64,000 bases of DNA from Haliotis rubra (Eukaryota): assembly GCF_003918875.1 (NCBI RefSeq), contig NW_025766975.1:994684-1058683 (forward strand), read 5' to 3'. Position numbers and translations under genes: made by a program. The notes beneath the pieces were generated by a model, which was given only the letters and a program-made list of their open reading frames with translations, was not told the origin of the DNA and made no database searches. Positions 2,316 to 53,265 of the stretch are shown here, in pieces. Each line of letters starts with the position of its first letter. The first letter of the stretch is position 1.

Positions 2316-2403
2316 CTAATTTCGATGAGCAGCCGTATAATATTACTGAGTTCGCGGCGTTAAACAATCAACCAACCAACCAATCAAACACCCGATAACG
2401 ATA

Positions 2404-2574: not shown

Positions 2575-2770
2575 GAGGGACGTTACACATACAACCAACC
2601 ACTTTTGTGTCTGGTTTAGACTGTTCACAACCAGTATGACGTCACTGTTATGTTTCATATTAAACACACACCCTTCCCCCCACCCCACCAACAACAACAT
2701 TTTAAAAAGATTTTTCAAAGATTATATACTGAGGTTAATGCTTTATATCAATGATATAAGAATCATAGTG

Positions 2771-3762: not shown

Positions 3763-3959
3763 CTAACACTGCCTGGCTTCTGTCAGGTAAGAGGAAAACC
3801 ATGACAGAGCAATACCACCTATTCCAACGTGATGTTTAGAGTATGTACATATGTTGTGTTCCATACTTTGACTAAGATACCCTCAGCTGTGAGGATTCGG
3901 TTCCAGAGGCGACTAAAATTCATTGGCTTCACTATTTATTTCCAACATATGAGACCAGT

Positions 3960-4201
3960 GAAGGTCCGGGTTAGAATGAGCCTTCAGTAATATAACCCAT
4001 GCTTGTCGTAAGAGGCGACTAACGGGATCGGGTGGTCAGGCTCGCTGGCTTGGTTGACACATGTCATCGGTTCCCAATTGCGCAGATCGATGCTCATGTT
4101 GTTGATCACAGGATTGTCAGGTGCAGACTCGATTATTTACAGACCGCCACCATATAGATGGAATATTGCTGAGTGCGGCGTAAAACTAAACTCACTCACT
4201 C
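3960..4201 (+). mobile_element. SINE-B copy (~240 bp)
   Basis: consensus ...GGTCCGGGTTAGAAT...CATGCTTGTCGTAAGAGGCGACTAACGGGATCGGGTGGTCAGGCTCGCTG...CAGACCGCCACCATATAGATGGAATATTGCTGAGTGCGGCGTAAAAC+(ACTC)n; about 14 copies/fragments in window; shares 3' tail module with SINE-A. Confidence 0.75.
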
Positions 4202-4707
4202 CAACATATGAATCTTCGACCTGAATTGTTTTAGAAACCTGACGGTTAAGAGGTTACAAGAAGAAGTGGTCAGCGCGGTATCACTAGGTACTATACTGTG
4301 TGTGACTGGGGTATCCATGTTATCCATATCAGTAGGCTAGCACACAGGCCCTCGTTTCTTCGCGAGGATGAAAGATTAAAATACATGACCCATGACTCGA
4401 AATGCTTTACAGTACAATAATCATGATTTGTTGTACTGTGAAAGCATTTCGAGTCGGGGATCAGCACAATTTTTTTTATTATAGCCTCCCGATTTCTTCT
4501 ATCTGGTATGTGGCCGCGGAGATTTCGGAGTGTCCGTGGCAGAAAATGCTTGAAACGTTAGTACAATATCGAATGCTGATGTGGGTCAGATTGCCACAAG
4601 CGTTAGAGTTATCTCCCTTGCGTCTTCATATGTAGATGACAGCTCTACCTTTCGAGAAGTTTCGTCATAGGGCAGTTTCAAGTTGGCTGGTTGTATCTAG
4701 ACATGAG

Positions 4708-4845
4708 TGTGTTAGTTTAGTTTAACGCAGCACTCAGCAATATTCCAGCTATATGGCGGCTGTCTGTAAATAATCGAGTCTGGAGCAGACAATCCGTGAT
4801 CAACATCATGAGCACCGTTCTACGCAATATCTATACATGACTGCC
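4708..4845 (-). mobile_element. SINE-B fragment
   Basis: tail module plus partial body in reverse orientation. Confidence 0.6.
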
Positions 4846-5282
4846 TCCCGTTTCCGCAACCTTTTCGAGACATTGTGTTTCCCTTAGGTGAACCTAAATT
4901 TAAAACTGTATTTCAGTATAATCTATTAGTCATTCCTTGATCTTGTGAAGTCATTTAATTACCGATTTCACATTTCTGTACGAACATATCTGTGGGTAAA
5001 CCTCTGCGTCTCGATATGGAAATCACCTCTGAAGGTTTGGCTGAAGGTTGCCCATGTTCCTTAATGAAATCATTCAACAAGTAGAAGAAAAAACAAGCAT
5101 ATTGCTTATAATTTTTTTTGAGTGATCGAGCATTTCTTACAAGTCAGCAGTTTGAAGACTATGTAACATTCAGCTTTAGTAATTTGGTTTATCCAAGGCT
5201 AGTCCAGAGTGCCAGTGTAAAACTTATTCAAACAGTCTTTGCTATTCCTGCTTGAACCTAAATAAACTAATTACTAGGGTTG

Positions 5283-5625
5283 TGAGGTGAGGTGAAATTG
5301 GGTTTTACGTCGTACTTGAGAATATTTCGCTCATATGACGACGTGCATGCGTGTGTATGTGTATGTGCGGTTGCTTGTACTAGCCCAGACTTAAGCTGGT
5401 TTTATAGTGCTAGCCCACTGAGATACCATGCCGCAGTGAAGCATGAATACCCCACTCAGACACATTATACTGACTCCGAGCTGACCAGTCCTTGTTGTAC
5501 CCATTAATGCCGAGCGCCAGGCAGGGACCAACAAGTACCATATTTTAACGTCTTTTGGTATGACGCGGCCGGGGATCGAACCCACGACCTTCCGCTCTCT
5601 ACTAGGGTAGTAAAACCCTCAGATA
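5283..5625 (-). mobile_element. SINE-C copy (tRNA-derived, (GGTGAG)n-tailed)
   Basis: same ~340-bp sequence as 24313-24544(+) and 35471-35837(-); the latter keeps a full tRNA-like head GACCGCCTCCGTGGTGTAGTGGTTAG...GGTTCGATCCCCGAC. Confidence 0.75.
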
Positions 5626-5715
5626 CCATCCATTGACTTTTACTTGTTAACAGCACAACTTAATAATTCCGGACAAGCAGACAAGCATGAATTTCTAAAG
5701 CACTGAAAGTAGCTT

Positions 5716-5840
5716 GTTAAGTTGCTCAATGCTGCATATATTCCAGCTATATGAGGGCAGTCTGTAATAATAAATAATCTAGTCTGGATCAGAACAATCC
5801 AGTGACTTACATCCTGTGAATTGATCTATACATTTGGGAA
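5716..5840 (-). mobile_element. SINE-B fragment
   Basis: tail module AGCAATATTCCAGCTATATGAGGGCAGTCTGTAA... plus partial body. Confidence 0.55.
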
Positions 5841-6234
5841 ACTACGAAATGCATCTACCAAGTCAGGGATCCTGACAACACTATATTGTTGCCTCTGAAG
5901 ACAAGAACTGGTCTCTGACCAAATCTAACACAGATGTTCAGGAGTAATTTCTCAAGTGAAAAATATATTTTACGTTTAAATGTAAACACACCAAAATAAA
6001 ATTTAAAAAAAATACCAACGCCTTGAACATGCACTAGTGCATGGATATGTGCGCTATATAAATATCAATAATAATAATATCCAATAATAAATATAACAAG
6101 AAAATATAGGAAATTGATTTTACTGAAATCTATATATGTACATCAATAGATATGTACATATTGTGTTCTACAGTATCAAAAGAAACAATATAATTTCTAT
6201 AAACATCCACATGGAAATAACATAACAAAGGTGG

Positions 6235-6362
6235 TTGTGGACTGGACTCCCACACAACAAGCCGTGTGTGACAGGACTCCCACACAACAAGCCGTGTGTG
6301 ATAGGACTCACACACAACAAGCCATGTGTGATAGGACTCACACACAACAAGCCGTGTGTGAA
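6235..6362. repeat. 30-bp tandem repeat x about 4.3
   Basis: GACTCCCACACAACAAGCCGTGTGTGACAG repeated; causes overlapping repetitive pseudo-ORFs on both strands. Confidence 0.85.
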
Positions 6363-8529
6363 TATCAGACTCCTTCTTCTCCAAACTCTGGCTCTCAGAT
6401 CTTGTGATTCAATACCCCTAAATATTAAACTTTGTAATTTCGATCACTGGCATCTTCAATTTTTATATCTCAAGCCTGATTGCCTCAAACCTTGCCACAA
6501 GGAATGGTTCAAAAGCAGGTTACTGTGATAAGCGGAGAATTCTCAACAACTCACCTGGCACATCTATACAAAATACCATCATACTAAATACAAAGGTGAA
6601 GATTTCACTGGTGTATATTCATAAGAAAATCATTCTGGCAAAGTGTGTTGGGGATAGATGTAGTTCAGAATCCAAAAAGGTAATTAGAGGGCTATCAACA
6701 AAGTTAGTTCAAATGTTGAAATTAAAGACCCTTATTTTGCAATAGCATATATATACCTGCTGTGCTTTTTCAAGTTAAAAGATAAACAAATGAGAAGAAA
6801 TTAGAGACTGAAAAATGTGGTGTTTATAAATTTAATACATTTACCTAAGGCTAGGCAAGAGGTTTGTATGGGAATAATTTATGGGGGCAGAACACTTAAT
6901 ATAGTGGACACAATATTTAATACCATGTTGTTTTGGATGAAAACTATCTTCCGTAAGTAAGATATGTGATCAACTTTGGTCCTAGGATGGAAACATATAA
7001 TAAACAGCTCTCATATTTATGTAAATATGGTAACATGGACTAAATAGACTCTTCTCCGATCAAAAAAGGTAAAAATGCACAGAAGTATTATGCAAAACTT
7101 TCAGAGATATTGTAAGGCACAAAGTTCAAGTCATGGAGCAGGTATTAAAAACTAACCAGAATAATGGAAACCAAATATGGGGAATATATAGATGCAAAAT
7201 ATGGGATAAACAACTAAACAAAACTGTATACTGGATATCCTGAAATGTTTGTTGTTGGTTCGCTCGCAAAAGGTGTTTGTCTTCTCCGTTCAGTGACAAA
7301 ACTTGAATTTCTTAAAGTGGTGACCGACAAGATATTCTGTTTCATTATATTCACTGTGGACCTGGTAACAAAGATGTTCAAAGTTTTGGTAACAAAATGA
7401 ATTGATTGTATGGCCACTGAACACAGACGTCTTCGTTCCTGTCCTACAAATACTTAGCAACCATACACACAGAAAATAGTGTGAGAAGAACGGTAGTTAT
7501 TCATTTCAGCAGAAGTAAGGTCTGGTGACAACCTTATCTAAAACAGACTCTCATAGGTTCTTCAAAAATCCCTTAACCCATTCATTAGTTTCGTTTGACT
7601 ACATGATATATACACTCTATACACAAAAAAGGAGGTAATTATAGGTAATATAACATGAACAAAAACATATATTTAATATCAAAATAATTTCTGGTGCCAA
7701 ATGGTGTACACATTACAAAGCTGCTTCATTGTCAGATTAACCTTAGAATATTCATTGTTCATATATACAAGTGCAACAACAGTGAACTGTTAACACAATG
7801 CTCATATACATTAATTTGGCGACCTTATATTAACGAAACTATGACAAATTCTGGTACAAAACAGCACTCCAAATATCAACAATCAAAGTGTAATAATTAC
7901 AGATCAATATCACAGACTTATCGCCAAGTACATGTACCAATATAGAAGGTCAATATATTAATAACTCTAAATATTGCCAAGCTATCTCTCACACATAGCT
8001 GCTTCAAAGAATTTGGCAGGAAATAATAATTCCGGAAGGGAGATATATTTGATTCCAAAACAGGCACCCCTTGTACCCAGTTTGAGAAAAAAATTATTTG
8101 TTTAAAAGCAATTGATACATTAAAAAAATACAATAATGTTTACAATAATGTTTAGCATTAACATTTGGGAAAAATTGTTATTTGCTTCAAAATGTTGTCT
8201 TTTCACTTTCAAAAGTTCTTATTTGTCATTTTCCTTTAATCACAGCAATTTTAATAATGCTTTTAATTTATTCAAAAAATACAATAATGGTTAAGCTGTA
8301 TCCAAGCCTCATATTCTACACTTGTCTAGTTATCACTGAGATGCAAGTTACCTCCACATACCCTTAACATTAAATACAACAATATTCATTCCACTTTGGA
8401 AATTTTTACTGAAATTAGCTGAAGACTTGGTTCCATTCATCTGTGCAATACAAGTCAACTCTACAAACCCGTGACATTAGTTTTATTCAAGTCATGTAAT
8501 TCATTTTCCCAGATTTGCTGAAGTCTTGG

Positions 8530-8699
8530 GTGAGTGAGTGAGTGACTTTAGTTTAATGCCGCTTTTAGCAATATTCCAGCAATATCATGGCAGGGGACAC
8601 TAGAAATGGGTTTCACACATTGTACCCATGTGAGGAATCAAACCCGGGTCTTCGACATGGTGAGCCAACGCTTTAACCACTAGGCTAAGCCACCGCCCT
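8530..8699 (-). mobile_element. SINE-A copy
   Basis: (GTGA)n...TTTTAGCAATATTCCAGCAATATCATGGCAGGGGACACTAGAAATGGG...CCACCGCCC. Confidence 0.8.
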
Positions 8700-10264
8700 G
8701 CTGAGACCTTGGGGCAGCTCTACATAAATCCCTGTCCTGCATGATGCAGTCATTTTCACACTGCAGCACATCAATCAAATAGATTTCCATATCAGATAAC
8801 TTACATGTTGTGAATATACTTCTCCATACAAGAATTTTTACTCCAGCATATTTTGTATTACATAGTCATCACATTAATTTCATGACTTACAGTATCTAAA
8901 ACAAGTAAACAATAATTGTCAAACGTGTGTATCATCATCATCATCATGCGCTTTGATCATGCACCTTGTGGATGGATACAGTGCTTTATAAATACTCATC
9001 AATATTATTATTATTATTATTATCTTAGTATGGCTTAATCACTATACTAATATGGAGAAACACCTATGTTTGACAATATTTGGGGAATCCAGCTGCATGT
9101 GATTTCAGGCTATTAAGAAATTTCCATATTTCAAAAGCTGAAGGCATTACATGTCAAAAGAAATCCAAGTAACCAAACTTCAAAATATATCATGGCAATA
9201 TTCACATTAATATCACAGCTGCCTTACTTCTATGAAGGTTATATTGACAGCTGTGGGATATATATACTCTTCAAAAAAAGTAGGGGAACCTGAACTTTCA
9301 ATTTGGATAGGAAGTATTTCAGTGTTAACAAACTTTTCAAAGACAGACATCTTAAGAACGCACCACCCCTACACAGAATGCATGGGATATACGTGCTCAA
9401 CGCAGTAGCCCCATACACATGCATTGAATGTCAGTTTTTTATTTTGATGGTTTTCAAGAAGGTCGATAAATCACTGTAGACTATTAATTTTGACAATCAT
9501 CTTGCATCACACAGTTGTTAGTGTTTGTTTCTAGCCATGTTTTTTTAATTTGAAAATTGTACACATGCAAATAAAACATGTTGAGGGCCAAACTTCACGT
9601 CATACACCAATCATCTTGCAAGATCGATTACTGTACAAACAATTATCATAAGCAAGTGCAAGTGGTGATGCACTCTCAAAACATTTATTATTATCATATC
9701 CACATTGATTGACTTTGATATATCTCCCAGTTGTTTCAATTGTAAATTAAAAATGAAGTTCCCCTAATCTTTTTTAAGAGCATAGTGTGACGAGCGAACG
9801 CTTTAATCACTAGGCAACCCCAACGCCCCTTTCATTTGTGAATGAGTTATATACAGTTAAATCAAACTGCCAGTATAATGTGGAAGAACAACCTGAAGTG
9901 ATGCAGGTCTCAGAACTTTACCACTTCAGTGTTGATATGGTGAGGACAATCACAGAAACAAAATTTCAGATGATCTAAATTTTCTCGCGTGAACAAGGGA
10001 CGGAACTCTGCACAGCAAATAGTGGCATCTTTGATGACTGGGCTACCCATGCCCCTTTGACTTAAGTGTCCTTTCATTTAACTTCATTCAAAATGTCTAC
10101 TTCTTCATCCTATGTTATTTTTTCAAACCTGGGAAACATCTAAAATTTGTAACTTTTGTAAACTTTCAATTGAATTCCTTCAACAGATGATTGTGTTAAA
10201 CTGCATATAAACTGCTGCTATTTTGTGAACTGTTATCTTGTGAAATGGGGCCTGTTTTGCAAAA

Positions 10265-10345
10265 GTGATCGTAGCGCTACGACTGTCGTAAGTCTATGTT
10301 AAAGTATGGGAGTTACGATCACCTTAGCACTACGATCGCTTTGTG
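10265..10345. repeat. short dispersed palindromic repeat (second copy 45113-45190)
   Basis: GTGATCGTAGCGCTACGACTGTCGTAAG...CACCTTAGCACTACGATCGCTTTGTG present twice in window; MITE-like. Confidence 0.5.
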
Positions 10346-10419
10346 AAATGGGGCTCTGCTTGGTAAGCCATGCTTCTAGCAATGACTATCAGAACCAATG
10401 GTGGAGTGGATGCAGCACT

Positions 10420-12544: not shown

Positions 12545-13818
12545 TACTTACCAGGCAAGTACTACCCAAATAGTTACCATGATTTGTGGCAATCAAGAAT
12601 CAATATTTAGCATGTTATGTGACAGTCAGGTACCTATATTTACCATGCTCTGTGAAATGCTCAGTGACAGTATAACATCACAGTTAGCATGTTCTGTGAC
12701 AGTCAGGTACCTATATTTACCATGCTCTGTGAAATGCCCAGTGACAGTATAACATCACAGTTAGCATGTTATGTGATGGTCAGGTACCTATATTTACCAT
12801 GCTCTGTGAAATGCTCAGTGACAGTATAACATCACAGTTAGCATGTTCTGTGACAGTCAGGTACCTATATTTACCATGCTCTGTGAAATGCTCAGTGACA
12901 GTATAACATCACAGTTAGCATGTTATGTGACAGTCAGGTACCTATATTTACCATGCTCTGTGAAATGCTCAGTGACAGTATAACATCACAGTTAGCATGT
13001 TCTGTGACAGTCAGGTACCTATATTTACCATGCTCTGTGAAATGCCCAGTGACAGTATAACATCACAGTTAGCATGTTATGTGATGGTCAGGTACCTATA
13101 TTTACCATGCTCTGTGAAATGCTCAGTGACAGTATAACATCACAGTTAGCATGTTCTGTGACAGTCAGGTACCTATATTTACCATGCTCTGTGAAATGCT
13201 CAGTGACAGTATAACATCACAGTTAGCATGTTATGTGACAGTCAGGTACCTATATTTACCATGCTCTGTGAAATGCTCAGTGACAGTATAACATCACAGT
13301 TAGCATGTTATGTGACAGTCAGGTACCTATATTTACCATGCTCTGTGAAATGCTCAGTGACAGTATAACATCACAGTTAGCATGTTATGTGACAGTCAGG
13401 TACCTATATTTACCATGCTCTGTGAAATGCTCAGTGACAGTATAACATCACAGTTAGCATGTTCTGTGACAGTCAGGTACCTATATTTACCATGCTCTGT
13501 GAAATGCTCAGTGACAGTATAACATCACAGTTAGCATGTTATGTGACAGTCAGGTACCTATATTTACCATGCTCTGTGAAATGCTCAGTGACAGTATAAC
13601 ATCACAGTTAGCATGTTCTGTGACAGTCAGGTACCTATATTTACCATGCTCTGTGAAATGCTCAGTGACAGTATAACATCACAGTTAGCATGTTATGTGA
13701 CAGTCAGGTACCTATATTTACCATGCTCTGTGAAATGCTCAGTGACAGTATAACATCACTGTGATGGTCAGTCATCAATAGTAGCCATGTTTTGTGACAG
13801 TTAAGTATCTATATTTAC
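12545..13818. repeat. Satellite D: 77-bp unit x about 16, abutting the donor of MVP exon 22
   Basis: period 77 measured (12681 to 12758); minus-strand unit ...CAGAGCATG|GTAAATATAGGTACCTGACTGTCAC... matches exon 22 end ...CAGGGCATG|GTAAATATAGATACTTAACTGTCAC. Confidence 0.85.
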
Positions 13819-13883
13819 CATGCCCTGTGTCTCCAGTCTAGCTTGATGTTCTATTGCCTCTGCCTCTGCCTTCAGTTTTGCAG
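13819..13883 (-). CDS. MVP: MVP exon 22 (cap-helix)
   Basis: gggttttttccag|CTGCAAAACTG ... GGCATG|gtaaat; encodes (A)AKLKAEAEAIEHQARLETQGM (cf. LQAKLKAQALAIETEAELQRVQK). Confidence 0.75.
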
Positions 13884-14074
13884 CTGGAAAAAACCCACAA
13901 ATTGCAAGAAAGAATGATATGCATAAGGTCAGTGCCCGCTTCAGTCCTCCTCTCCTAATTGTAAGTCATTTATCATTCAAGTCCTCATTCATTCTATGGA
14001 AACCTCAAAACTAAGCCATAGGATTCTGAACACAGCAGAAATCTGATATGAGGGAAATGTTCACTGAGCACTGC

Positions 14075-17000
14075 CCTGAATGACTGTTTGACCAGAAAAC
14101 TTTCTTCCATAAAAATCCATCTGTATCACACACAGCTCACCTTCAATCTCACTCTGACACTCTATAAGCATCCTCTCTGCCTGGGCCTCTATCACACACA
14201 GCTCACCTTCAATCTCACTCTGACACTCTATAAGTATCCTCTCAGCCTGGGCCTGCATCACAGCTCACCTTCAATCTCACTCTGACACTCTATAAGCATC
14301 CTCTCTGCCTGGGCCTGCATCACAACTCACCTTCAATCTCACTCTGACGCTCTATAAGCATCCTCTCAGCCTGGGCCTGTATCACACACAACTCACCTTC
14401 AATCTCACTCTGACACTCTATAAGCATCCTCTCAGCCTGGGCCTGCATCACAGCTCACCTTCAATCTCACTCTGACGCTCTATAAGCATCCTCTCAGCCT
14501 GGGCCTGTATCACACACAACTCACCTTCAATCTCACTCTGGCACTCTATAAGCATCCTCTCAGCCTGGGCCTGTATCACACACAGCTCACCTTCAATCTC
14601 ACTCTGACGCTCTATAAGCATCCTCTCAGCCTGGGCCTGTATCACACACAACTCACCTTCAATCTCACTCTGACGCTCTATAAGCATCCTCTCAGCCTGG
14701 GCCTGTATCACAGCTCACCTTCAATCTCACTCTGACGCTCTATAAGTATCCTCTCAGCCTGGGCCTGCATCACAACTCACCTTCAATCTCACTCTGACGC
14801 TCTATAAGCATCCTCTCAGCCTGGGCCTGCATCACAGCTCACCTTCAATCTCACTCTGATGCTCTATAAGCATCCTCTCAGCCTGGGCCTGTATCGCACA
14901 CAGCTCACCTTCAATCTCACTCTGACGCTCTATAAGCATCCTCTCAGCCTGGGCCTGCATCACAGCTCACCTTCAATCTCACTCTGACACTCTATAAGCA
15001 TCCTCTCAGCCTGGGCCTGTATCACACACAGCTCACCTTTCAATCTCACTCTGGCTCTATATAAGCATCCTCTCAGCCTGGGCCTGCATCACAACTCACC
15101 TCTTCAATCTCACTCTGACACTCTATAAGCATCCTCTCAGCCTGGGCCTGTATCACACACACAACTCACCTTCAATCTCACTCTGCCAGCTCTATAAGTA
15201 TCCTCTCAGCCTGGGCCTGTATCACACACAGCTCACCTTCAATCTCACTCTGACACTCTATAAGTATCCTCTCAGCCTGGGCCTCTATCACACACAGCTC
15301 ACCTTCAATCTCACTCTGACACTCTATAAGTATCCTCTCAGCCTGGGCCTGTATCACACACAGCTCACCTTCAATCTCACTCTGACACTCTATAAGTATC
15401 CTCTCAGCCTGGGCCTCTATCACACACAGCTCACCTTCAATCTCACTCTGACACTCTATAAGTATCCTCTCAGCCTGGGCCTCCTATCACACACAGCTCA
15501 CCTTCAATCTCACTCTGACACTCTATAAGTATCCTCTCAGCCTGGGCCTGTATCACACACAGCTCACCTTCAATCTCACTCTGACACTCTATAAGTATCC
15601 TCTCAGCCTGGGCCTGTATCACACACAGCTCACCTTCAATCTCACTCTGACACTCTATAAGCATCCTCTCAGCCTGGGCCTGCATCACAACTCACCTTCA
15701 ATCTCTCACTCTGACACTCTATAAGCATCCCTCTCAGCCTGGGCCTGTATCACACACAACTCACCTTCAATCTCACTCTGACGCTCTATCAGTATCCTCT
15801 CAGCCTGGGCCTGTATCACACACAGCTCACCTTCAATCTCTCACTCTGACACTCTATAAGTATCCTCTCAGCCTGGGCCTGTATCACACACAGCTCACCT
15901 TCAATCTCACTCTGACACTCTATAAGCATCCTCTCAGCCTGGGCCTGTATCACACACAGCTCACCTTCAATCTCACTCTGACACTCTATAAGTATCCTCT
16001 CAGCCTGGGCCTGTATCACACACAGCTCACCTTCAATCTCACTCTGACACTCTATAAGCATCCTCTCAGCCTGGGCCTCTATCACACACAGCTCACCTTC
16101 CAATCTCACTCTGACACTCTATAAGCATCCTCTCAGCCTGGGCCTCAGCTATCACACACAGCTCACCTTCAATCTCACTCCTGACACTCCTATAGGTATC
16201 CTCTCAGCCTGGGCCTGTATCACACACAGCTCACCTTCAATCCCACTCTGGCACTCTATAAACATCCTCTCAGCCTGGGCCTGTATCACAGCTCACCTTC
16301 AATCTCACTCTGACGCTCTATAAGCATCCTCTCAGCCTGGGCCTGCATCACAACTCACCTTCAATCTCACTCTGACGCTCTATAAGCATCCTCTCAGCCT
16401 GGGCCTGTATCACAGCTCACCTTCAATCTCACTCTGACACTCTATAAGCATCCTCTCTGCCTGGGCCTCTATCACACACAGCTCACCTTCAATCTCACTC
16501 TGGCTGCATCCTCTATAAAGTATCCTCTCAGCCTGGGCCTGTATCACACACAGCTCACCTTCAATCTCACTCTGACACTCTCACACAAGCATCCTCTCTG
16601 CCTGGGCCCTCCTATCACATAATGTCAGCTCACCTTCAATCTCACTCTGACCTCTGTAAGCATCCTCTCTGCCTGGGCCTCTATCACACACGTCTCACCT
16701 TTCAATCTCACTCTGACCTCTATAAGTATCCTCTCAGCCTGGGCCTGTATCACACACAGCCTCACCTTCAATCCTCACTCTGATACTCTATAAGCATCCT
16801 CTCTGCCTGGGCCTCTATCACACACAGCTCACCTTCAATCTCCTCCTGACCTCTATAGGTATCCTCTCAGCCTGGGCCTCTATCACACACAGCTCACCTT
16901 CAATTCTCACTCTCAGCCTGGTCTGTATCCTGTGGCTCTCACTCTGACACTCTATAAGTATCCTCTCTGCCTGGGCCTGTATCACACACAGCTCACCTTC

Positions 17001-20000
17001 AATCTCACTCTGACACTCTATAAGTATCCTCTCGGCCTGGGCCTGTCACACACAGCTCACCTTCAGTCTCACTCTGACACTCTATAGACGTCCTCTCTGC
17101 CTGGGCCTCTATCACACAGCTCACCCTTCACTCTCACTCTGACACTCTCTATGGTATCCTCTCTGCCTGGGCTCTGTATCACACACAGCTCACCTTCAAT
17201 CTCACTCTGACACTCTCTATAGTATCCTCAGCCTGGGCCTGTGTCACAGCTCACCTTCAATCTCACTCTGACACTCCTTATAAGCATCCATCTCTGCCTG
17301 GGCCTCTATCACAGCTCACCTTCATACCATTTTCTCTGACCACTCTGCAATGTCCTCCTCTCAGCCTGAGCCTGTATCACTGGCTCACCTTCCAATCTCA
17401 CTCTGTCCTCTATAAGCATCCCTCTCTGCCTGGGCCTGCATCTAACTCACCTTCCAATCTCACTCTGACGCTCTATAAGCATCCTCTCAGCCTGGGCCTG
17501 TATCCAAAACTCACCTTCAATCTCACTCCTGACACTCTATAAGCATCCTCTCAGCCTGGGCCTGCATCACAGCTCACCTTCAATCTCACTCTGACTCTCT
17601 ATAAAGCATCCTCTCAGCCTGGGCCTGTATCACAGCTCACCTTCAATCTCACTCTGACACTCTATAAGCATCCTCTCTGCCTGGGCCTCTATCACACACA
17701 GCTCACCTTCAATCTCACTCTGGCACTCTATAAGTATCCTCTCAGCCTGGGCCTGTATCACACACAGCTCACCTTCAATGTCACTCTGACACTCTATAAG
17801 TATCCTCTCAGCCTGGGCCTGTATCACACACAGCTCACCTTCAATCTCACTCTGACACTCTATAAGCATCCTCTCAGCCTGGGACTGCATCACAACTCAC
17901 CTTCAATCACTCTGACAATCTATAAAAGCATCCTCTCAGCCTGGGCCTGTATCACAGCTCACCTTCAATCTCACTCTGACACTCTATAGAAGCATCCTCT
18001 CTGCCTGGGCCTCTATCACAGCTCACCTCCAATCTCACTCTGGCTCTATAAGTATGTCCTCTCTGCCTGGGCCTGTATCACAGCTCACCTTCAATCTCAC
18101 TCTGACACTCTATAAGCATCCTCTCTGCCTGGGCCTCTATCACACACAGCTCACCTTCAATCTCACTCTGACACTCTATAAGTATCCTCTCAGCCTGGGC
18201 CTGTATCACAGCTCACCTTCAATCTCACTCTGACTCTCTATAAGTATCCTCTCAGCCTGGGCCTGCATCACAACTCACCTTCAATCTCACTCTGACACTC
18301 TATAAGCATCCTTTCAGCCTGGGACTGCATCACAACTCACCTTCAATCTCTCACTCTCATGACACAGCTCTATAAGCATCCTCTCAGCCTGGGACTGCAT
18401 CACAGCTCACCTTCAATCCTCACTCTGACACTCTATAAGCATCCCTCTCACCTGGGCCTGTATGTCACACAGCTCACCTTCAATCTCACTCTGACACTCA
18501 ATAAGCATCCCCTCAGCCTGGGCCTGTATCACACACAACTCACCTTCAATCCCTCTCTAGGCTCTATAAGGATCCTCTCAGCCTGGGCCTGTATCACACA
18601 GCTCACCTTCAATCCCACTCTGACTCTATAAGCATCCTGGGCCTGGGCCTGTATCACACACAGCTCACCACCTTCAATCTCACTCTGACACTCTATAAGC
18701 ATCCTCTCAGCCTGGGCCTGTATCACACACAGCTCAGCTTCAATCTCCTCTCTGGCTCTATAAGCATCCTCTCAGCCTGGGCCTGTATCACAACTCACCT
18801 TCAATCTCACTCTGACACTCTATAAGCATCCTCTCAGCCTGGGCCTGTATCACAGCTCACCTTCAATCTCACTCTGACGCTCTATAAGCATCCTCTCAGC
18901 CTGGGCCTGTATCACAACTCACCTTCAATCTCACTCTGGCACTCTATAAGCATCCTCTCACCCTGGGCCTGTATCACACACAGCTCACCTTCAATCTCAC
19001 TCTGACACTCAATAAGCATCCCCTCAGCCTGGGCCTGTATCACACACAACTCACCTTCAATCCCACTCTGACACTCTATAAGGATCCTCTCAGCCTGGGC
19101 CTGTATCACACACAGCTCACCTTCAATCCCACTCTGACACTCTATAAGCATCCCCTCAGCCTGGGCCTGTATCACACACAACTCACCTTCAATCCACTCT
19201 GACACTCTATAAGCATCCTCTCAGCCTGGGCCTGTATCACACACAGCTCACCTTCAATCTCACTCTGACGCTCTATAAACATCCTCTCAGCCTGGGCCTG
19301 TATCACAGCTCACCTTCAATCTCACTCTGACGCTCTATAAGTATCCTCTCAGCCTGGGCCTGTATCACACACAGCCTCACAGCTCACCTTCACATCTCAC
19401 TCTGACTCTCTATAAGCATCCTCTCAGCCTGGGCCTGTATCACACACAACTCACCTTCAATCTCACTCTGGCACTCTATAAGTATCCTCTCAGCTGGGCC
19501 TGTGTCACACAACTCACCTTCAATCTCACTCTGACACTCTATAAGTATCCTCTCAGCCTGGGCCTGTATCACACACAGCTCACCTTCAATCTCACTCTGA
19601 CACTCTATCAGCATCCTCTCAGCCTGGGCCTGTGTCACACAGCTCACCTTCCATCCACTGACTGGCTCTATAAGCATCCTCTCAGCCTGGGCCTGTATCA
19701 CACACAGCTTACCTTCAATCTCACTCTGGCAGTCTATAAGTATCCTCTCAGCCTGGGCCTCTATCACCACACAGCTCACCTTCAATCTCACTCCTGGCAC
19801 TCTATAAGCATCCTCTCGGCCCTGGGCCTGTGTCACACACAACTCACCTTCAATCTCGCTCTGGCACTCTATAAGGTATCCTCTCAGCCTGGGCCTCCCT
19901 ATCACACACGCTCTTCACCGTCTCACTCTGACACTCTATAAGTATCCTCTCGGCCTGGGCCTGTATCACACACAGCTCACCTTCAATCTCACTCTGACAC

Positions 20001-20420
20001 TCTATAAGTATCCTCTCAGCCTGGGCCTGTATCACACAGCTCACCTTCAATCTCACTCTGACACTCTAAGCATCCTCTCAGCCTGGGCCTGTATCACACA
20101 CACAAGCTCACCTTCAATCTCACTCCTGGCGCTCTATAAGCATCCTCTCAGCCTGGGCCTGTATCACACACAGCTCACCTTCAATCTCACTCTGACACTC
20201 TATAAACATCCTCTCAGCCTGGGCCTGTATCACAGCTCACCTTCAATCCCACTCTGACACTCTATAAACATCCTCTCAGCCTGGGCCTGTATCACAGCTC
20301 ACCTTCAATCTCACTCTGACACTCTATAAGCATCCTCTCAGCCTGGGCCTGTATCACACACAGCTCACCTTCAATCTCACTCTGGCACTCTATAAGCATC
20401 CTCTCAGCCTGGGCCTGTGC
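14075..20420. repeat. Satellite C: 62/66-bp unit x about 95-100 (~6.3 kb), starting at the donor of MVP exon 21
   Basis: period 66 measured (14131 to 14197); 62-bp variants lack CACA; minus-strand unit ATACAGGCCCAGGCTGAGAGGATGCTTATAGAGTGTCAGAGTGAGATTGAAG|GTGAGCTGTGTGTG = last 47 nt of exon 21 + consensus donor + 19 nt intron; in-frame (22 aa QAQAERMLIECQSEIEGELCVI); degenerate or frameshifted in 16100-17600 and 19390-19900. Confidence 0.9.
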
Positions 20421-20595
20421 TTCAGCTTTGGCTTGCCCAGTTGACTCAACAGCTGCAGCTATAGCACACAGATGCAGCAAGTTGGCCCTCTCCTTCTCTG
20501 CATCCTTCTCATTGGCCAGCTTCTGTCTCTCCAGCTGACCGCGTGCAGCCTGCTCAATCTTGTCAGCCTCATGGGCTGCTGCATTCTCTATGGAC
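20369..20595 (-). CDS. MVP: MVP exon 21 (shoulder/cap-helix start)
   Basis: tactgtacag|GTCCATAGAG ... GATTGAAG|gtgagc; encodes (K)SIENAAAHEADKIEQAARGQLERQKLANEKDAEKERANLLHLCAIAAAVESTGQAKAEAQAQAERMLIECQSEIE (cf. ...[61 protein letters not shown]). Confidence 0.8.
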
Positions 20596-20784: not shown

Positions 20785-22880
20785 TAATTTTTGGAGTAAA
20801 ATTGATATTTTATACTTATCCTGACTCATGCTCTTTTTGCTTGTCTTCTTCTTCTTGCGAACATAGTGGAACACTTGTATCTCCCTAATTGAAGCTCCCT
20901 TCAATTTAAAATCACTAATTAGTATTCACCACGAGTTACCTCCTTTCCACAAGCGCGGGAACGAGGGCGCCACCTCTACCCATGTGCCTCACTCTCTCCT
21001 CATATACTGAGCCCAACATTTGAATTTACAGGAAATCCAAAGTGTTATTTGGGGAGGATGGGAGGGGCTGACCTCATGAGTCAGGATAAGTATAAAATAT
21101 CAATTTTACTCCAAAATTACATATTTTCCTTATCCTGACTCATGCTCTTGCTTGTAGCATCCTACGGACGGAGGTGGGAATATCTAATACTTTGGATTTT
21201 TAATAATTAGTGATTTGAACTGTGATGATTGTAATAACCCTATGGGAACTTCATAAAGGCACTGAACTGATGAATTCCTGCTGCTAACTTATCAGCTGCC
21301 ATATATGTTAAAAGGTTATTACCATGTACTTATTATGATAAAGTATATATAACATTAATACAATGCTTAAGACTAATAGACTTAAGCTTGTTAATATGCT
21401 AGTATAAACTCCTTAGAGTTTGTTAGCTAAAATACTTTAAGATATAACATAGTACTAAGCTTAAGATATGATTAAACTTAAGCTAATTATATAATAGCAA
21501 ACTCTTTAGAGTTTGTTAGCTAATCTACTTATATGATATAGATATAGTGCTGAGCTTAAGATATGAATAAGCTTTAGCTACCTATATATATAATAGCAAA
21601 ACTCTGTAGAGTTTGTTAGCTAATATATTTTTATAATATGAGTATAGTACTATGCTTAAGGTATAATTAGCTTAAGTTACCTATATAATAGTAAAACTCC
21701 GTAGAGTTTGTTAGCTTAATTAACTTAAGCTATGTATAAAATAGCCAAAAACTCTGTAGAGTTTGTTAGCTAATGCATTTATCATGTAACCATAGTATTA
21801 CTCTTAAGATATGAATAACTTAAGGTAAATATATATAATAACAAACTCTGTAGAGTTGTTAACTTATATATTGTATGATGTAATAATCATAGTACTGTGA
21901 TGATAAAAGGAACTTAAGTAAATTATATATAGCATGAAGCTATTTAGTATTGTTATAAGATAAGTAAAAATCTGTTAGATTGACTTATCTTCTAAGAGGA
22001 ACTGTCAGCTGTTGTGCGAGGACCATGGGATCGAATTGGTGTATACCTGAGACGTCCTCCTGGTGGTGATATCTCTCAGATAATGGTTTGCAACCACCAT
22101 ATCGATTTCCAGAAATAAACCCTCCATTATTTCAATCACATTTGTGTAGAACAATTGTAGAAGTTAGCGCTATAATATCATGAGTATTAAGCTCATGGAG
22201 GGTCGGAATAGGTCCATCCGCATATGCACGTAGTATGACAGTTCTGATCCAAATGGAGATATAGTACATGAGACTTCACTCTGCGTAAGTTGATGATAGA
22301 GGAAATAATCTGTTGCATTTTTCCTCCTGTTTGGTTTGGTGGAGATAAATTTACAGTGCTCTTGCTGGCCATCTTGATAGAATCATCGTGATCATGGGGT
22401 CCAAGTATGTCATCCAGGCGGTTGTTCATAAACCCGGATCAGCAGCAGCATAAAAACGCAATCTGTAATAGTACAGAATTTTCATCAACGAATCCACTGA
22501 AACAAACACGCGCCCCGTGAATAAACTGTAGAAAAAAACGAATTAAATATCAATATATAATCGCTTGAAGGATACTAGCTAAACCTCTATAGATGTCTAT
22601 ACGAGGTAACTAACTAAATATAATTCAAAGGATATAGTGTGTCGGAGACACAGGCGCTTCTCACGTCCAGCTCACTGGGCGAAGAAGGAGAGAGTGAGGC
22701 ACATGGGTAGAGGTGGCGCCCTCGTTCCCGCGCTTGTGGAAAGGAGGTAACTCGTGGTGAATACTAATTAGTGATTTTAAATTGAAGGGAGCTTCAATTA
22801 GGGAGATACAAGTGTTCCACTATGTTCGCAAGAAGAAGAAGACAAGCAAAAAGAGCATGAGTCAGGATAAGGAAAAATTA
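20785..22880. mobile_element. TE1: ~2.1-kb non-autonomous foldback-like DNA element with ~230-bp terminal inverted repeats
   Basis: 20812-21040 is the reverse complement of 22660-22880 (CTTATCCTGACTCATGCTCTTTTTGCTTGTC...GGCGCCACCTCTACCCATGTGCCTCACTCTCTCC); subterminal hairpin CATGAGTCAGGATAAG...CTTATCCTGACTCATG; internal ~60-bp tandem array 21340-21900; shared with TE2. Confidence 0.75.
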
Positions 22881-37688: not shown

Positions 37689-38375
37689 GGAAAAAATAAG
37701 AGATGTCAAGAGTCATATCATACACTCGCATACCTGTGCATAAATCAAAGAGGTCATATTGTGATTCACATTATTCAACTACAAAGGTGAAATTCTCTTC
37801 CCAGTCTCCACTTAAAAGTCTGATTTGATCGACCTACAATCCCTTCACAATGTCCAAGTTAATAAATGGGTGGATAGATACTCCTCACGATCTTCATTTT
37901 TCACAGTGTGGGATAGAGCTACTTCTCCTCATAATAGGCCCCGTAAGTCTCTCGAGGCGCTACTTCCAGTACTAAGCGACTTCCCGGCTCCCTTTGAGCA
38001 CGACAACGTCCGGGGCCCAGCTTACTTCTGGTACCACATTTCCAGTGACAAACGTATATTCAAGAACCAGGTCTGGTTCCAAATTGTTTGACCGCCAAAT
38101 ATGACTTTACTAGACCAGACCAAGTGTACAACCATGCTTGGCTGTCACAGCTGTTGACAGCCGTAATAGTTGGCTAATGTGGGAATGGTTAGATCGGAGA
38201 TTTGTTATTCCTGCAAGGAGTATCGGTTCCTTAATGTCAACTGACAACCATGAGTCCATTTGAAAAGTTATGAAATGTTGTGCCATAACCTACTTACAGG
38301 CCCTATACATTAGCAGGCTAGTATAGACCTACCAGGCTTTCACAATCTCCATTGCAAACTATGGGATAGCCCTAC

Positions 38376-47024: not shown

Positions 47025-49665
47025 CACCATTGCAGCTCTAGAAATGTGGTCTACTCGCCACATCAGCTCTAGCAATGTGGTCTACTCGCCACATCAGCTC
47101 TAGGAATGTGGCCTACTCAACACATCAGCTCTAGGAATGTAGGTTACTCAACACATAAGCTCTAGGAATGTAGGCAACTCGCCACATCAGCTCTAGGAAT
47201 GTGGTGTACTCAACAGCTCAGCTCTAGGAATTTGGTCTACTTGCCACATCAGCTCTAGGAATGTGGTCTCTCGCCACATCAGCTCAACACATAGGCTCTA
47301 GGAATGTGGTCTACTCGCCACATCAGCTCTAGGAATGTGGTCTACTCAACATATCAGCTCTAGGAATGTGGTCTACTCAACACATAGGCTCTAGGAATGT
47401 GGTCTACTCAACACATCAGCTCTAGGAATGTGGCCACATCAGCTCTAGGAATGTGGTCTACTCAACATATCAGCTCTAGGAATGTGGTCTACTCACCACA
47501 TCGGCTCTAGGAATGTGGTCTACTCAACACATCAGCTCTAGGGATGTAGCTTAGTCACCACATCAGCTCTAGGGATGTAGCCTACTCAGCTCTAGGAATG
47601 TAGGTTACTCACAACATCAGCTCTAGGAATGTGGCCTACTCACCACATCAGCTCTAGGGATGTAGGCTACTCACATCAGCTCTAGTAATGTGGGTTACTC
47701 ACCACATCAGCTCCAGGAATGTAGGCTACTCACCACATCATCTCTAGGAATGTAGGCTACTCACCACATTAGCTCCAGTGATGTAGGCTACTCACCACAT
47801 CATATCTCTAGGAATGTGGGTTACTCACCACATCAGCTCTAGGAATGTGGGTTACTCACCACATCAGCTGTAGGGATGTAGGTTACTCACCACGTCAGCT
47901 CTAGGAATGCAGGCTACTCACCACATCAGCTCTAGGCATGTAGGCTACTCACCACATCAGCTCTAGGGATGTAGGCTACTCACCACATCAGCTCTAGGAA
48001 TGTGGGTTACTCACCACATCAGCTCTAGGAATGTGGGTTACTCACCACATCAGCTCCAGGAATGTAGGCTACTCGACACATCAGCTGTAGGTATGAAGGT
48101 TACTCACCACATCAGCTCTAGGAATGTAGGCTACTCACCCACATCAGTTCTAGGAATGTAGGCTACTCACCACATCAGCTCTAGGAATGTGGGTTACTCA
48201 CCACATCAGCTGTAGGGATGTAGGTTACTCACCACATCAGCTCTAGGAATGCAGGCTACTCACCACATCATCTCTAGGCATGTAGGCTACTCACCACATC
48301 AGCTCTAGGGATGTAGGCTACTCACCACATCAGCTCTAGGAATTTGGGTTACTCACCACATCAGCTCTAGGAATGTGGGTTACTCACCACATCAGCTCCA
48401 GGAATGTAGGCTACTCGACACATCAGCTGTAGGGATGAAGGTTACTCACCACATCAGCTCTAGGGATGTAGGCTACTCACCACATCAGCTCTAGGAATGT
48501 AGGCTACTCACCACATCAGTTCTAGGAATGTGGTTTACTCACCACATCAGCTCTAGGAATGTGGTTTACTCACCACATCAGCTCTAGGAATGTGGGTTAC
48601 TCAACACATCAGCTCTAGGAATGTAGGCTACTCACCACATCAGCTCTAGGAATGTGGGTTACTCACCACATCAGCTCTAGGAATGTAGGCTACTCACCAC
48701 ATCAGTTCTAGGAATGTAGGCTAATCACCACATCAGCTCTAGGAATGTAGCCTACTCACCACATCAGCTCCAGGCTACTCACCACATCAGCTAGGAATGT
48801 AGGCTACTCATCACATCAGCTCTAGGAATGTAGGCTACTCACCACATCAGCTCTAGGAATGTAGGCTACTCACCACATCAGCTCTAGGGATGTAGGCTAC
48901 TCAACACATCAGCTCTAGGAATGTAGGCTACTCACCACATCAGCTCTAGGAATGTAGGCTACTCACTACGTCAGGTCTAGGAATGTGGGTTTCTCACCAC
49001 ATCATCTCTAGGAATGTAGGCTACTCACCACATCAGCTCTAGGAATGTAGCCTACTCACCACATCAGCTCTAGAAATGTAGGCTACTCATCACATCAGCT
49101 CTAGGAATGTAGGCTACTCACCACATCAGCTCTAGGAATGTAGGCTACTCACCACATCAGCTCTAGGGATGTAGGCTACTCACCACATCAGCTCTAGGAA
49201 TGTAGGCTACTCACCACATCAGCTCTAGGAATGTAGGCTACTCACCACATCAGCTCTAGGGATGTAGGCTACTCACCACATCAGCTCTAGGGATGTAGGC
49301 TACTCACCACATCAGCTCTAGGAATGCAGGCTACTCACCACATCAGCTCTAGGGATGCAGGCTACTCCCCACATCAGCTCTAGGTATGTAGGCTACTCAC
49401 CACATCAGCTCTAGGAATGTGGGTTTCTCACGTCAGCTCTAGGGATGTAGGCTACTCACCACATCAGCTGTAAGGATGTAGGCTACTCACCACGTCAGCT
49501 CTAGGGATGTAGCCTACTCAACACATCAGTTCTAGGAATGTAGCCTACCCCAATCAGCTCTAGGAATGTAGGCTCATCACCACGTCAGCTCTAGGGATGT
49601 AGGCTCATCACCACATCAGCTCTAGGGATGTAGGCTACTCACCACATCAGCTCTAGGGATGTAGG
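47025..49665. repeat. Satellite B: 31-bp unit x about 85 (~2.6 kb), starting at the donor of MVP exon 4
   Basis: period 31 measured (48841 to 48872); minus-strand unit CCTACATYCCTAGAGCTGATGTG|GTGAGTAG = last 23 nt of exon 4 (..YIPRADV) + GTGAGTAG donor. Confidence 0.9.
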
Positions 49666-50867: not shown

Positions 50868-51040
50868 CTAGAAGAGAAACAGCAAAGCATTAAACAAAAC
50901 CCATCTTCATCAACACCTAGAAATATGCTTGTGTATAGCCAGGTCAAAAGCAATGGCTCAGAGATTGTGATTAGTCTTGCTAGATTACCTACCAGACTTG
51001 ATGCAAACATTTAGTAGGAGTACATATATTGGGAGATCAA

Positions 51041-53265
51041 CACCTGTTAGGTGACCGAGATGACCTCACCTCATGGGGTCTGTGATGATGTTATGGTGAC
51101 CGAGATGACCTCACCTCATGGGGTCTGTGATGATGTTATGGTGACCAAGACTACCTCACCTGATGGGGTCTGTGATGGTGTTATGGTGACTGAGATTACC
51201 TCACCTGATGGGGTCTGTGATGGTGTTATCGTGGCTGAGATGACCTCACCTGATGGGGTCTGTGACACTGTTATCGTGACTGAGATGACCTCACCTGATT
51301 GGGTCTGTGATGCTGTTATGTTGACCGAGATGACCTCACCTGATGGGGTCTGTGATGCTGTTATGGTGACCGAGATGACCTCACCTGATGGGGTCTGTGA
51401 TGGTGTTATGGTGACCGAGATTACCTCACCTGATGGGGTCTGTGATGCTGTTAGGGTGACCGAGATGACCTCACCTCATGGGGTCTGTGATGCTGTTATC
51501 GTGACTGAGATGACCTCACCTGATGGGGTCTGTGATGTGTAATCATGACCGAGATGACCTCACCTGATGGGGTCTGTGACGGTGTTATCGTGACTGAGAT
51601 GACCTCACCTGATGGGGTCTGTGATGCTGTTATGGTGACCGAGATGACCTCACCTGATGGGGTCTGTGATGCTGTTGAAGTGACTGAGATGACCTCACCT
51701 GATGGGGTCTGTGATGCTGTTATTGTGACTGAGATGACCTCACCTGATGGGGTCTGTGATGCTGATGAAGTGATCTGAGATGACCTCACCTGATGGGGTC
51801 TGTGATGCTATTATAGTGACTGAGATGACCTCATCTGATGGGGTCTGTGTGATGCTGTTATCGTGGACCAAGATTACCCTCACCTGATGGGGTCTGTGAT
51901 GCTGTACCTATCGGACTGAGATGACCTCACCTGATGGGGTCTGTGATGTATTATCATGACTGAGATGACCTCACCTGATGGGGTCTGTGATGCTATTATG
52001 ATCGTGACTGACCTCACCTGATGGGGTCTGTGATGCTGTTATGGTGACTGAGATGACCTCACCTGATGGGGTCTGTGACACTGATGAAGTGATCAAGATG
52101 ACCTCACCTGATGGGGTCTGTGATGATGTTATGGTGACCGAGATGACCTCACCTGATGGGGTCTGTGATGATGTTATGGTGACTGAGATGACCTCACCTG
52201 ATGGGGTCTGTAATGCTGTTATCATGACCAAGATGACCTCACCTGATGGGGTCTGTGATGCTGTTATGGTGACTGAGATGACCTCACCTGATGGGGTCTG
52301 TGATGCTGTTATCGTGACTGAGATGACCTCACCTGATGGGGTCTGTGATGCTGTTATCGTGACCAAGATGACCTCACCTGATGGGGTCTGTGATGCTGTT
52401 ATCATGACCAAGATGACCTCACCTGATGGGGTCTGTAATGCTGTTATCGTGACTGAGATGACCTCACCTCATGGGGTCTGTAATGCTGGTGACTACCTTA
52501 TGCTATTATGGTGACTGAGATGACCTCACCTGATGGGGTCTGTGATGCTGTTATCGTGACCGAGATGACCTCACCTGATGGGGTCTGTGATGCTATTATG
52601 GTGACTGAGATGACCTCACCTCATGGGGTCTGTGATGCTGTTATCGTGACCAAGATGACCTCACCTGATGGGGTCTGTGATGCTGTTATGGTGACTGAGA
52701 TGACCTCACCTGATGGGGTCTGTGATGATGTTATGGTGACCGAGATGACCTCACCTGATGGGGTCTGTGATGATGTTATGGTGACCGAGATTACCTCACC
52801 TGATGGGGTCTGTGATGCTATTATGGTGACCGAGATTACCTCACATGATGGGGTCTGTGATGGTGTTATGGTGACCGAGATGACCTCACCTGATGGGGTC
52901 TGTGATGCTGTTATCGTGACTGAGATGACCTCACCTGATGGGGTCTGTGATGATGTTATGGTGACCGAGATGACCTCACCTGATGGGGTCTGTGATGATG
53001 TTATGGTGACCGAGATTACCTCACCTGATGGGGTCTGTGATGCTGTTATGGTGACCGAGATGACCTCACCTGATGGGGTCTGTGATGATGTTATGGTGAC
53101 CGAGATGACCTCACCTGATGGGGTCTGTGATGATGTTATGGTGACCGAGATTACCTCACCTGATGGGGTCTGTGATGCTATTATGGTGACCGAGATTACC
53201 TCACATGATGGGGTCTGTGATGCTGTTATCGTGACCAAGATGACCTCACCTGATGGGGTCTGTGA
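51041..53265. repeat. Satellite A: 45-bp unit x about 49 (~2.2 kb), starting at the donor of MVP exon 2
   Basis: period 45 measured (52741 to 52786); minus-strand unit TCACAGACCCCATCAG|GTGAGGTCATCTCGGTCACCATAACAKCA = last 16 nt of exon 2 (..VTDPI) + CAG|GTGAGG donor + 29 nt intron; irregular segment 51780-52040. Confidence 0.9.

Follow-up and report, generated by a model that had tools for sequence, protein, structure and literature searches.

The stretch of DNA analyzed here, referred to as the window in the following, comprises 64,000 nucleotides of Haliotis rubra (NCBI RefSeq assembly GCF_003918875.1, contig NW_025766975.1, positions 994,684 to 1,058,683 of the forward strand) and carries on its minus strand a gene for a protein similar to the major vault protein (MVP), in which a 66-bp minisatellite, array C, begins at the end of exon 22 and fills most of intron 22. 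We conclude that array C is very probably an intronic minisatellite of the 'mirage' type, in which the end of an exon and the adjoining splice donor are reiterated within the intron, and that it is spliced out together with intron 22 from the most upstream donor. Following this interpretation, a 66-bp segment over the exon 22/intron 22 boundary (48 nt of exon and 18 nt of intron, between ACAG microhomologies) would have been tandemly duplicated and then expanded to 97 units via slippage or unequal exchange. Splicing from the GT at 20368 to the acceptor at 13884/13883 would remove the whole array and yield the ...SEIE|AAKLK... cap-helix, while the approximately 93 reiterated donors would be silent or at most minor. 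The first of these pseudo-donors may give a rare form with 22 additional amino acids (aa), and all others would give transcripts with a premature stop.

The host gene was identified through its protein product. About 26 coding exons were located with tblastn on the minus strand between 54292 and 10423; the probe was a human MVP sequence, which served for exon location only, and the map was redone with the H. rubra protein. The exons of the window are 100% identical to the H. rubra 'major vault protein-like' XP_046574866.1, and a draft concatenation of them matched the 'major vault protein-like' of Haliotis asinina, whose 90% cluster also includes the proteins of H. rubra, Haliotis rufescens and Haliotis cracherodii. 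The matched proteins carry PF01505, PF17794-6 and PF11978, that is, the vault repeat, shoulder and cap-helix architecture expected of MVP. In these searches, a 119-aa query (exons 22 and 23) missed 100%-identical full-length Haliotis proteins that a 729-aa query found, so that negative results from short queries carry little weight in the word-indexed protein search.

Exon 22 (20369..20595, minus strand), the 22nd of the approximately 26 coding exons in our count, encodes roughly residues 671-744 of the MVP-like cap-helix (...SIENAAAHEADK...AQAERMLIECQSEIE). It is assigned by its translation, by its identity to XP_046574866.1 and by a match to residues 670-739 of solved MVP structures in the PDB (E 5e-13). 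On the minus strand, its end reads ...GCACAGGCCCAGGCTGAGAGGATGCTTATAGAGTGCCAGAGTGAGATTGAAG, followed by GTGAGCTGTGTGTGATACAG, with the translation ...STGQAKAEAQAQAERMLIECQSEIE. Exon 23 (13819..13883, minus strand; AAKLKAEAEAIEHQARLETQGM), which is likewise assigned by its translation and its identity to the H. rubra protein, begins at 13883 after ttttttccag and completes the split codon as G|CT (Ala), in agreement with the phase-1 acceptor that the initial annotation of this stretch had noted. Between the array and exon 23 lies the unique rest of intron 22, including the 3' splice site ttttttccag| (13884..14120, minus strand), which is homologous to the H. asinina intron right after GTGAGTTGTATATGATACAG.

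Tandem Repeats Finder reports one tandem array at 14121-20418 (period 66, 96 copies, 85% matches), and wrap-around alignment resolves it into 97 units over 14121-20414 on the minus strand, which span 6.3 kb and include 66-bp, 62-bp and other-length variants; the unit table and the column statistics delimit it accordingly. Its start had earlier been placed at 14075, about 46 nt too far out, in unique intron sequence. The minus-strand consensus unit is GCCCAGGCTGAGAGGATGCTTATAGAGTGTCAGAGTGAGATTGAAG|GTGAGCTGTGTGTGATACAG, with the repeating 66-nt segment reading GCCCAGG...GATACAG, and each unit consists of 46-48 nt of the exon 22 tail and 14-18 nt of the intron head, including the donor. Unit 1 spans the authentic exon-intron junction, as it comprises the real end of exon 22 (its last 46 nt, ...AQAERMLIECQSEIE) and 18 nt of intron (GTGAGCTGTGTGTGATACAG), so that the splice signal recurs in the remaining 96 units, all of which fall within intron 22. 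The array is thus a head-to-tail tandem of a unit within 10-160 bp, as is characteristic of boundary minisatellites. The GT at +1/+2 is kept in 93 of 96 units and AAG|GTGAG(C/T) is found in about 89, which bears out the earlier description of the unit as an exon tail with a consensus donor. The 62-bp variants, in which the TGTG of the minus strand (plus-strand CACA) is missing, are common, as had also been recognized: among 94 donor spacings, 27 measure 66 nt and 24 measure 62 nt, the others being 61-75 nt or compound. By contrast, the stretches at 16100-17600 and 19390-19900, previously described as degenerate, are only mildly so. Most units match the consensus at 58-63 of 66 positions, two near 16900-17000 at 44-48, and the units differ from their own consensus by about 3.5% substitutions. 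A scan of the window with Rfam revealed no known RNA family.

The origin of the array can be traced by comparison with the orthologous loci of H. rufescens (L004), H. asinina (L005) and H. cracherodii (L006), in all three of which the 66-bp array is absent; there is likewise no array at the orthologous donor of a related contig (L001). In the single-copy intron of H. asinina, ...GATCGAAG|GTGAGTTGTATATGATACAG is directly followed by AGGGACTTTTATGGAAGAAAG... / AGGGACTTTTATGGAAGAAAGTTGCCAGGTCAAAC..., while H. rubra has GTGAGCTGTGTGTGATACAG, the array and then ATGGATTTTTATGGAAGAAAGTTTTCTGGTCAAAC..., aligning with H. asinina on both sides of the array. The collinearity with H. asinina indicates that array C is derived from single-copy exon and intron sequence and not from an inserted transposon or satellite, and the H. 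asinina state is the ancestral, single-copy intron. An ACAG stands at either edge of the duplicated segment, as gcACAG|GCCC on the exon side and as gatACAG|ATGG on the intron side, and this pair bears the signature of a microhomology-mediated tandem duplication. Without the array, intron 22 would measure about 250-300 nt. Since the units have diverged by only about 3.5%, compared to about 16% in the flanking intron between H. rubra and H. asinina (counted on the alignment), the expansion, which is specific to the H. rubra lineage, looks younger than the split of these two species.

The authentic 5' splice site (GT at 20367..20368, minus strand; GAAG|GTGAGC) comes first, at the upstream end of a series of about 94 near-identical donors, and is required by the SEIE|AAKLK junction: the RefSeq proteins of all four Haliotis species join ...ECQSEIE|AAKLKAEAE..., and the equivalent junction in Gigantopelta and Patella reads SEIE-A(A/V/R)(K/T/R)LKAEA. 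Because the conserved protein requires it, and by analogy with human and amphioxus cases, we infer splicing of the first donor to exon 23. Its use in vivo is suggested by the analogy with intron 7 of the human F7 gene (F7 IVS7), by the conservation of the protein, and by exon definition or a 5'-to-3' commitment of the splicing machinery. The canonical mRNA junction is ...GAGATTGAAG|CTGCAAAACTG. Use of the first pseudo-donor (GT at 20301..20302, minus strand) would instead produce the hypothetical junction ...GATTGAAGGTGAGCTGTGTGTGATACAGGCCCAGG...GATTGAAG|CTGCAAAACTG, which adds 66 nt encoding the 22 residues GELCVIQAQAERMLIECQSEIE, and the predicted protein would contain GELCVIQAQAER; in our reading of the frame, this is the only pseudo-donor that gives an open in-frame insert. 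At the far end of the array, some 255 nt separate the last pseudo-donor (GT at 14139..14140, minus strand) from the acceptor downstream, and this donor has the context of the ancestral short intron, as judged from the unit table and the comparison with H. asinina.

The initial annotation had proposed that splicing from donor k would insert k x 22 aa of sequence into the cap-helix. This fails from the second pseudo-donor on: unit 2 is a 62-bp variant, the first in the array, and introduces an in-frame TGA (20294-20292, minus strand; GGT GAG CTG TGA), which ends the open reading frame of the exon at 20295 and stops every product with k>=2 at codon 25. As a consequence, all products from pseudo-donor 2 on contain a premature stop. 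Counted outward from the first donor, as had been suggested, the units therefore begin with one in-frame step of 66 nt and are then thrown out of frame by the next, 62-bp unit; no uninterrupted frame leads from exon 22 through successive units, with spacings of 66 nt in 27 of 94 cases. While it is correct that the consensus period of 66 is divisible by 3, this property is not general, because the sister arrays described below have periods of 45, 31 and 77. Similarly, long open frames do persist across the array, with stop-free stretches of 67-174 aa on the minus strand, but the plus strand has stretches of 150-220 aa as well, so that the open frames are a by-product of repetition. Among the variants in the 45 exon-derived coding columns, 8 types are synonymous and 35 non-synonymous, two types creating stops. 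We sought a synonymous excess among the unit variants as a mark of purifying selection and found none; at 8:35 versus a neutral expectation of 23:112, the units appear to be under no coding constraint. An exact look-up in a collection of 15 billion sequences retrieved the canonical H. rubra protein but not the predicted +22-aa form, and the 90% protein cluster that holds the four Haliotis species contains no +22-aa isoform either. Recursive-splicing (ratchet) sites were also considered for the units and rejected: the unit boundary reads ACAG|GCCCAGG, with the donor 46 nt further on, and if ACAG| served as the acceptor, 48 nt would be added that read GGC CCA GGC TGA. All in all, the fallback of the initial annotation, that the array may be simply intronic, is the best reading.

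Array C is not the only array of this kind in the gene. In a k-mer screen that covered all 24 located exon ends of the window gene, downstream copies of exon ends were found at four donors only, those of arrays A, B, C and D, all of which read on the minus strand. Array A (51040..53264; 49 units of 45 bp) starts in the tail of exon 2 (...HYISVTDPI; exon end 53250) and carries CATCAG|GTGAGG in each unit. Array B (47033..49664; 87 units of 31 bp) is built from the last 22 nt of exon 4 (...TYIPRADV, GATGTG|; exon end 49643) and GTGAGTAGC. Array D (12607..13826; 16 units of 77 bp, 97% alike) proceeds from the donor of exon 23 (...ETQGM, GGCATG|GTAAATATAG), with CATG|GTAAATATAG in every unit. A further donor is marked by the relic of an array E, a single extra, degenerate copy of the exon-11 tail and donor (...GTGAAAGCCTG|GTAGGTCT) at approximately 38324..38375 (minus strand). 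Hence, four of the approximately 25 introns of the window gene begin with a donor-anchored array, and five donors are affected across Haliotis.

Between the species, these arrays differ considerably. Arrays A and B recur in each of the four Haliotis species, with 49/34/24/30 copies of A and 87/19/10/8.5 copies of B. In H. rufescens and H. cracherodii, array D has a unit of 33 bp, which is repeated 85 and 34 times, respectively, whereas H. asinina lacks the array. Array E, a degenerate relic in both H. rubra and H. asinina, has expanded in the other two species, H. rufescens and H. cracherodii (34/43-bp units, 26-70 units; donor ...GTGAAGAGAAG|GTAGATCT; L004 19358-20257, L006 18376-20375). With copy numbers that differ between species for A, B and D, and with C found only in the window, the arrays are unstable between lineages. 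In H. rufescens, array A (L004 6140-7649, about 33 units) has a unit of 40 nt of exon and only GTGAG, directly after the authentic donor, and the first nine units, which were checked, all show a perfect CAG|GTGAGT at 45-nt spacing. The part of the array A unit that matches the exon is 40 nt long in H. rufescens and H. cracherodii, but just 15-21 nt long in both H. rubra and H. asinina, where the distal 25 nt of the unit have diverged from the exon; this suggests re-seeding or lineage-specific homogenization. H. rubra has weakened pseudo-donors at the proximal ends of two arrays, namely the first four in array B and the first in array A. Selection against frame-breaking donors close to the exon was considered as the cause, but the proximal pseudo-donors are intact in the other species, and the weakening is probably due to chance or edge degeneration. 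A G-rich coding strand with R-loop formation was likewise discarded as a common cause of the arrays, since array C is strongly G-skewed on the coding strand and array A is skewed the opposite way.

Comparable arrays occur in the MVP-like genes of other molluscs. In Gigantopelta aegis, a distantly related gastropod, about 20 units of 74 bp form an array at the very donor of exon 22 (...CACAGCGAGATCGAAG|GTAAACAGG; ...GAGATCGAAG|GTAAACAGG; L008 43886-45467), which arose independently of H. rubra array C, and a 100%-identical two-copy duplication lies across the ...NNHFE donor (L008 35226-35383). In Patella vulgata, about 10 units of TACCTGGAGTTTGTGAAC(T)AG|GTAAAC follow the ...YLPGVCEE exon (L010 14241-14775), and a two-copy duplication is found at ...DDMFK|GTATTTT (L010 16664-16758). 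A two-copy duplication in Ostrea edulis overlaps the ...EELLK exon end and a putative donor (L011 13954-14044). No acceptor-spanning array was found in any locus examined; array E of H. cracherodii had at one point been tagged as such, but this was a mis-tag from exon-like copies inside the array. As controls, a Haliotis MVP paralog and the clathrin heavy-chain gene (about 30 exons) were included, and neither has a donor-spanning array. Some arrays do not include a donor, yet start 9-34 nt into introns (8069-9388 and 12840-13377 in the MVP paralog of H. cracherodii, L007, and L008 28676-29128). We are left with the impression that the 5' ends of introns are favored array sites in MVP genes.

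Different explanations of array C have to be weighed against this background. That reiterated in-frame donors insert k x 22 aa of heptad-like sequence, and thereby make the cap helix of MVP vary in length among isoforms or alleles, is very unlikely. The proposal draws on the consensus period of 22 codons, on the intron-derived 18 nt (GELCVI), which contain no stop in the phase of exon 22, on the first pseudo-donor, which is intact and would add exactly 22 aa, and on the human genes IFI6 and CBS, which use their two most proximal pseudo-sites (PMC1557585). Against it stand the stop from unit 2, which makes all insertions with k>=2 impossible as coding sequence, the missing synonymous excess, and the isoform itself, which is neither annotated in the four Haliotis species nor present in the protein collection. 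Moreover, the array is absent from the congeners, so that any such isoform would be new and dispensable; the periods of the sister arrays do not fit, and array A runs directly into AG|G TGA. Finally, the vault cap is 39-fold (established structure, PDB 4V60 family), and helices of mixed length would be expected to disturb it. We give even less credence, indeed hardly any, to an assembly artefact in the form of a collapsed or mis-polished long-read repeat. It is true that long-read assemblies are error-prone in such arrays and that the units differ mainly by (TG)n indels and a few recurrent substitutions, but the variation is structured, with shared variants and higher-order patterns, the junctions to unique sequence are clean and can be aligned with H. 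asinina, and homologous arrays A, B, D and E recur in four independently assembled species.

Two further explanations concern the arrays as a group. They could be functional RNA elements, in which runs of sites for the U1 small nuclear ribonucleoprotein act as splicing or transcription enhancers, as telescripting sites or as U1 decoys that tune MVP expression. The presence of five donor-anchored arrays in one gene, the retention of A and B in all four Haliotis species, the independent hit on the same junction in Gigantopelta and the perfect CAG|GTGAGT in at least the first nine array A units of H. rufescens speak in favor of such a role, as does an enrichment over random placement (P about 2e-4 to 3e-3, post hoc). 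We nevertheless regard it as improbable, because the pseudo-donors show no sign of being maintained: the density of rare variants per column is not lower in the donor 9-mer than in the rest of the unit (1.22 vs 0.59 in array B, 0.78 vs 0.68 in array C), for which reason we reject selection maintaining pseudo-donors, and the GT is kept in just 60 of 85 array B units and lost in 25. The arrays also turn over, with C confined to H. rubra, D absent from H. asinina and E reduced to relics in H. rubra and H. asinina, their unit length and copy number vary 10-fold, and homogenization alone can explain their persistence. Array C is thus most likely without function. A tentative alternative, which we consider possible but rather doubtful, is a bias in origin: donors, or a constrained exon copy that cannot be lost, would act as a hotspot or permanent seed for the birth of minisatellites, and the arrays would be neutral but non-randomly placed. 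In the window gene, four of eight independent arrays span a donor and none of the eight an acceptor; under uniform seeding, the probability of at least four of eight donor-spanning arrays is about 2e-4, and about 3e-3 under a compact-gene null, both values being post hoc, uncorrected for tolerance effects and drawn from a single gene family. The recurrence of different unit lengths at the same junctions by lineage (77 vs 33 bp in D, 43 vs 34 bp in E), the apparent re-seeding of array A and the independent arrays at the Gigantopelta exon-22 donor and at other donors in Patella fit this proposal. On the other hand, the ancestral introns were short (about 200-300 nt), so that 15-25% of tolerated duplications would span a donor anyway, acceptor-spanning duplications are expected to be selected against, and the two control genes have no donor-spanning array.

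Several observations also weigh against our preferred reading, an intronic minisatellite removed from the most upstream donor. The last pseudo-donor lies in the exact ancestral context and could compete under intron-definition or proximity rules, and at least 10 units carry GTGAGT, a closer match to U1 than the authentic GTGAGC. As the first pseudo-donor is intact and in frame, a +22-aa isoform is conceivable. The Haliotis junctions in RefSeq come from predicted gene models, the difference between 62 and 66 bp sits in the (TG)n run, the part of the unit most prone to assembly error, and the enrichment of arrays at donors in this gene hints at more than neutral chance.

Other repeats were noted in and around the gene. 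A degenerate GT-rich array (GATGTTGATGTAGATGCTGTTG-like, periods 15-69) in intron 8 (41650-42500, minus strand) has no anchor in an exon and is conserved in position in three Haliotis species (the window, L004 16212-17269 and L006 15195-15526). Two MVP introns share an AT-rich satellite of about 95 bp (21406-21931, 3 copies; 29791-31151, 14 copies), which is probably borne by a dispersed element. A 151-bp repeat (3.6 copies) lies in an MVP intron at 38606-39152; the unit of a 156-bp repeat (3.4 copies) in the clathrin heavy-chain locus (L009 12985-13517) is superficially similar, so that the 151-bp repeat may be borne by a mobile element. A presumed relic duplication at the tail of intron 9, similar to the tail of exon 9, proved to be a pyrimidine tract only. 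Downstream of MVP, a 30-bp array of 4 copies at 6236-6361 reads TGT|GTGAGTCC (GTGAGT-like) on the minus strand, has no exon-like open reading frame beside it and is probably unrelated, and a 300-aa open reading frame at 2860-3762 (minus strand) shows the C-terminal hallmarks of a reverse transcriptase of long interspersed nuclear elements (...RLWNSLP...FKSRLKTYLF). Apart from MVP, no host gene was recognized in the window at 1-10400.

Array C is a very large example of the known exon-intron-boundary minisatellites, the amphioxus mirages and the arrays of human F7, IFI6 and CBS. To our knowledge, such minisatellites have not been described in molluscs before, and a literature search yielded no report of them in abalone. 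The original 'mirage' paper is reportedly that of Canestro from 2002. Like array C, the amphioxus mirages consist of tandem units of exon end and splice signal in an intron beside the authentic junction; they are reported not to disturb splicing, vary in copy number between haplotypes or species, undergo concerted evolution and have more divergent units at their edges (PMC3087553, PMC3902484). Apart from the host, a vetigastropod mollusc instead of a cephalochordate, array C differs in size (97 units over 6.3 kb compared to 2-6 units in the amphioxus globin examples), and the abalone arrays are found on the donor side only, whereas amphioxus has acceptor-side arrays too. They differ from the amphioxus mirages also in that a single gene has arrays at five of its junctions, two of which are conserved across the genus.

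Among the human cases, the 37-bp variable-number tandem repeat in F7 intron 7 has a first monomer that also lies over the exon-intron boundary, such that the authentic donor is followed by identical pseudo-donors. It has 5-9 repeats of 4 nt of exon and 33 nt of intron, compared to 97 units of 48 + 18 nt in array C, where the choice of donor is a prediction. In F7, the pseudo-sites become functional once the upstream site is destroyed (Borensztajn et al. 2006, PLoS Genet, PMC1557585), and the mutational analysis favors a choice in the 5'-to-3' direction, in which identical sites further downstream are ignored; in F7 IVS7, LMNB2 and PDGFA, only the authentic, most upstream donor is used (PMC1557585). 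LMNB2 and PDGFA have 10-18 donor-spanning repeats of 81-100 bp, a far lower copy number, and one array per gene. Reiterated donors, as in array C, are also found in IFI6 (6-16) intron 2, with 25 pseudo-sites, and in CBS intron 13, with 15-20 repeats, and their use of proximal pseudo-sites is a precedent for a possible minor +22-aa form in abalone. In contrast to these two genes, the second pseudo-site of array C would already yield a premature stop.

A variable length of the vault cap, if true, would have mattered for vault architecture, but the sequence leaves room for a single +22-aa form at most. What array C offers instead is a natural test of how the spliceosome chooses among about 94 near-identical donors over 6.3 kb, the last of which lies in the original short-intron context, and it thus bears on the debate between scanning and proximity that was addressed with the F7 gene. 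It also extends the 'mirage' phenomenon, known in amphioxus and a few human genes, to molluscs, with a resolved ancestral state and a cross-species series. Whether the splice donors of mollusc MVP genes are recurrent and long-lived birthplaces of minisatellites is a more speculative matter, on which we lean towards doubt. If they are, this would imply a donor-linked bias in mutation or retention, for instance through a selectively frozen exon copy that serves as a permanent seed or, in a less likely version, through a function of the runs of U1 sites, and 'mirages' would be a general phenomenon, found in molluscs as well as in cephalochordates.

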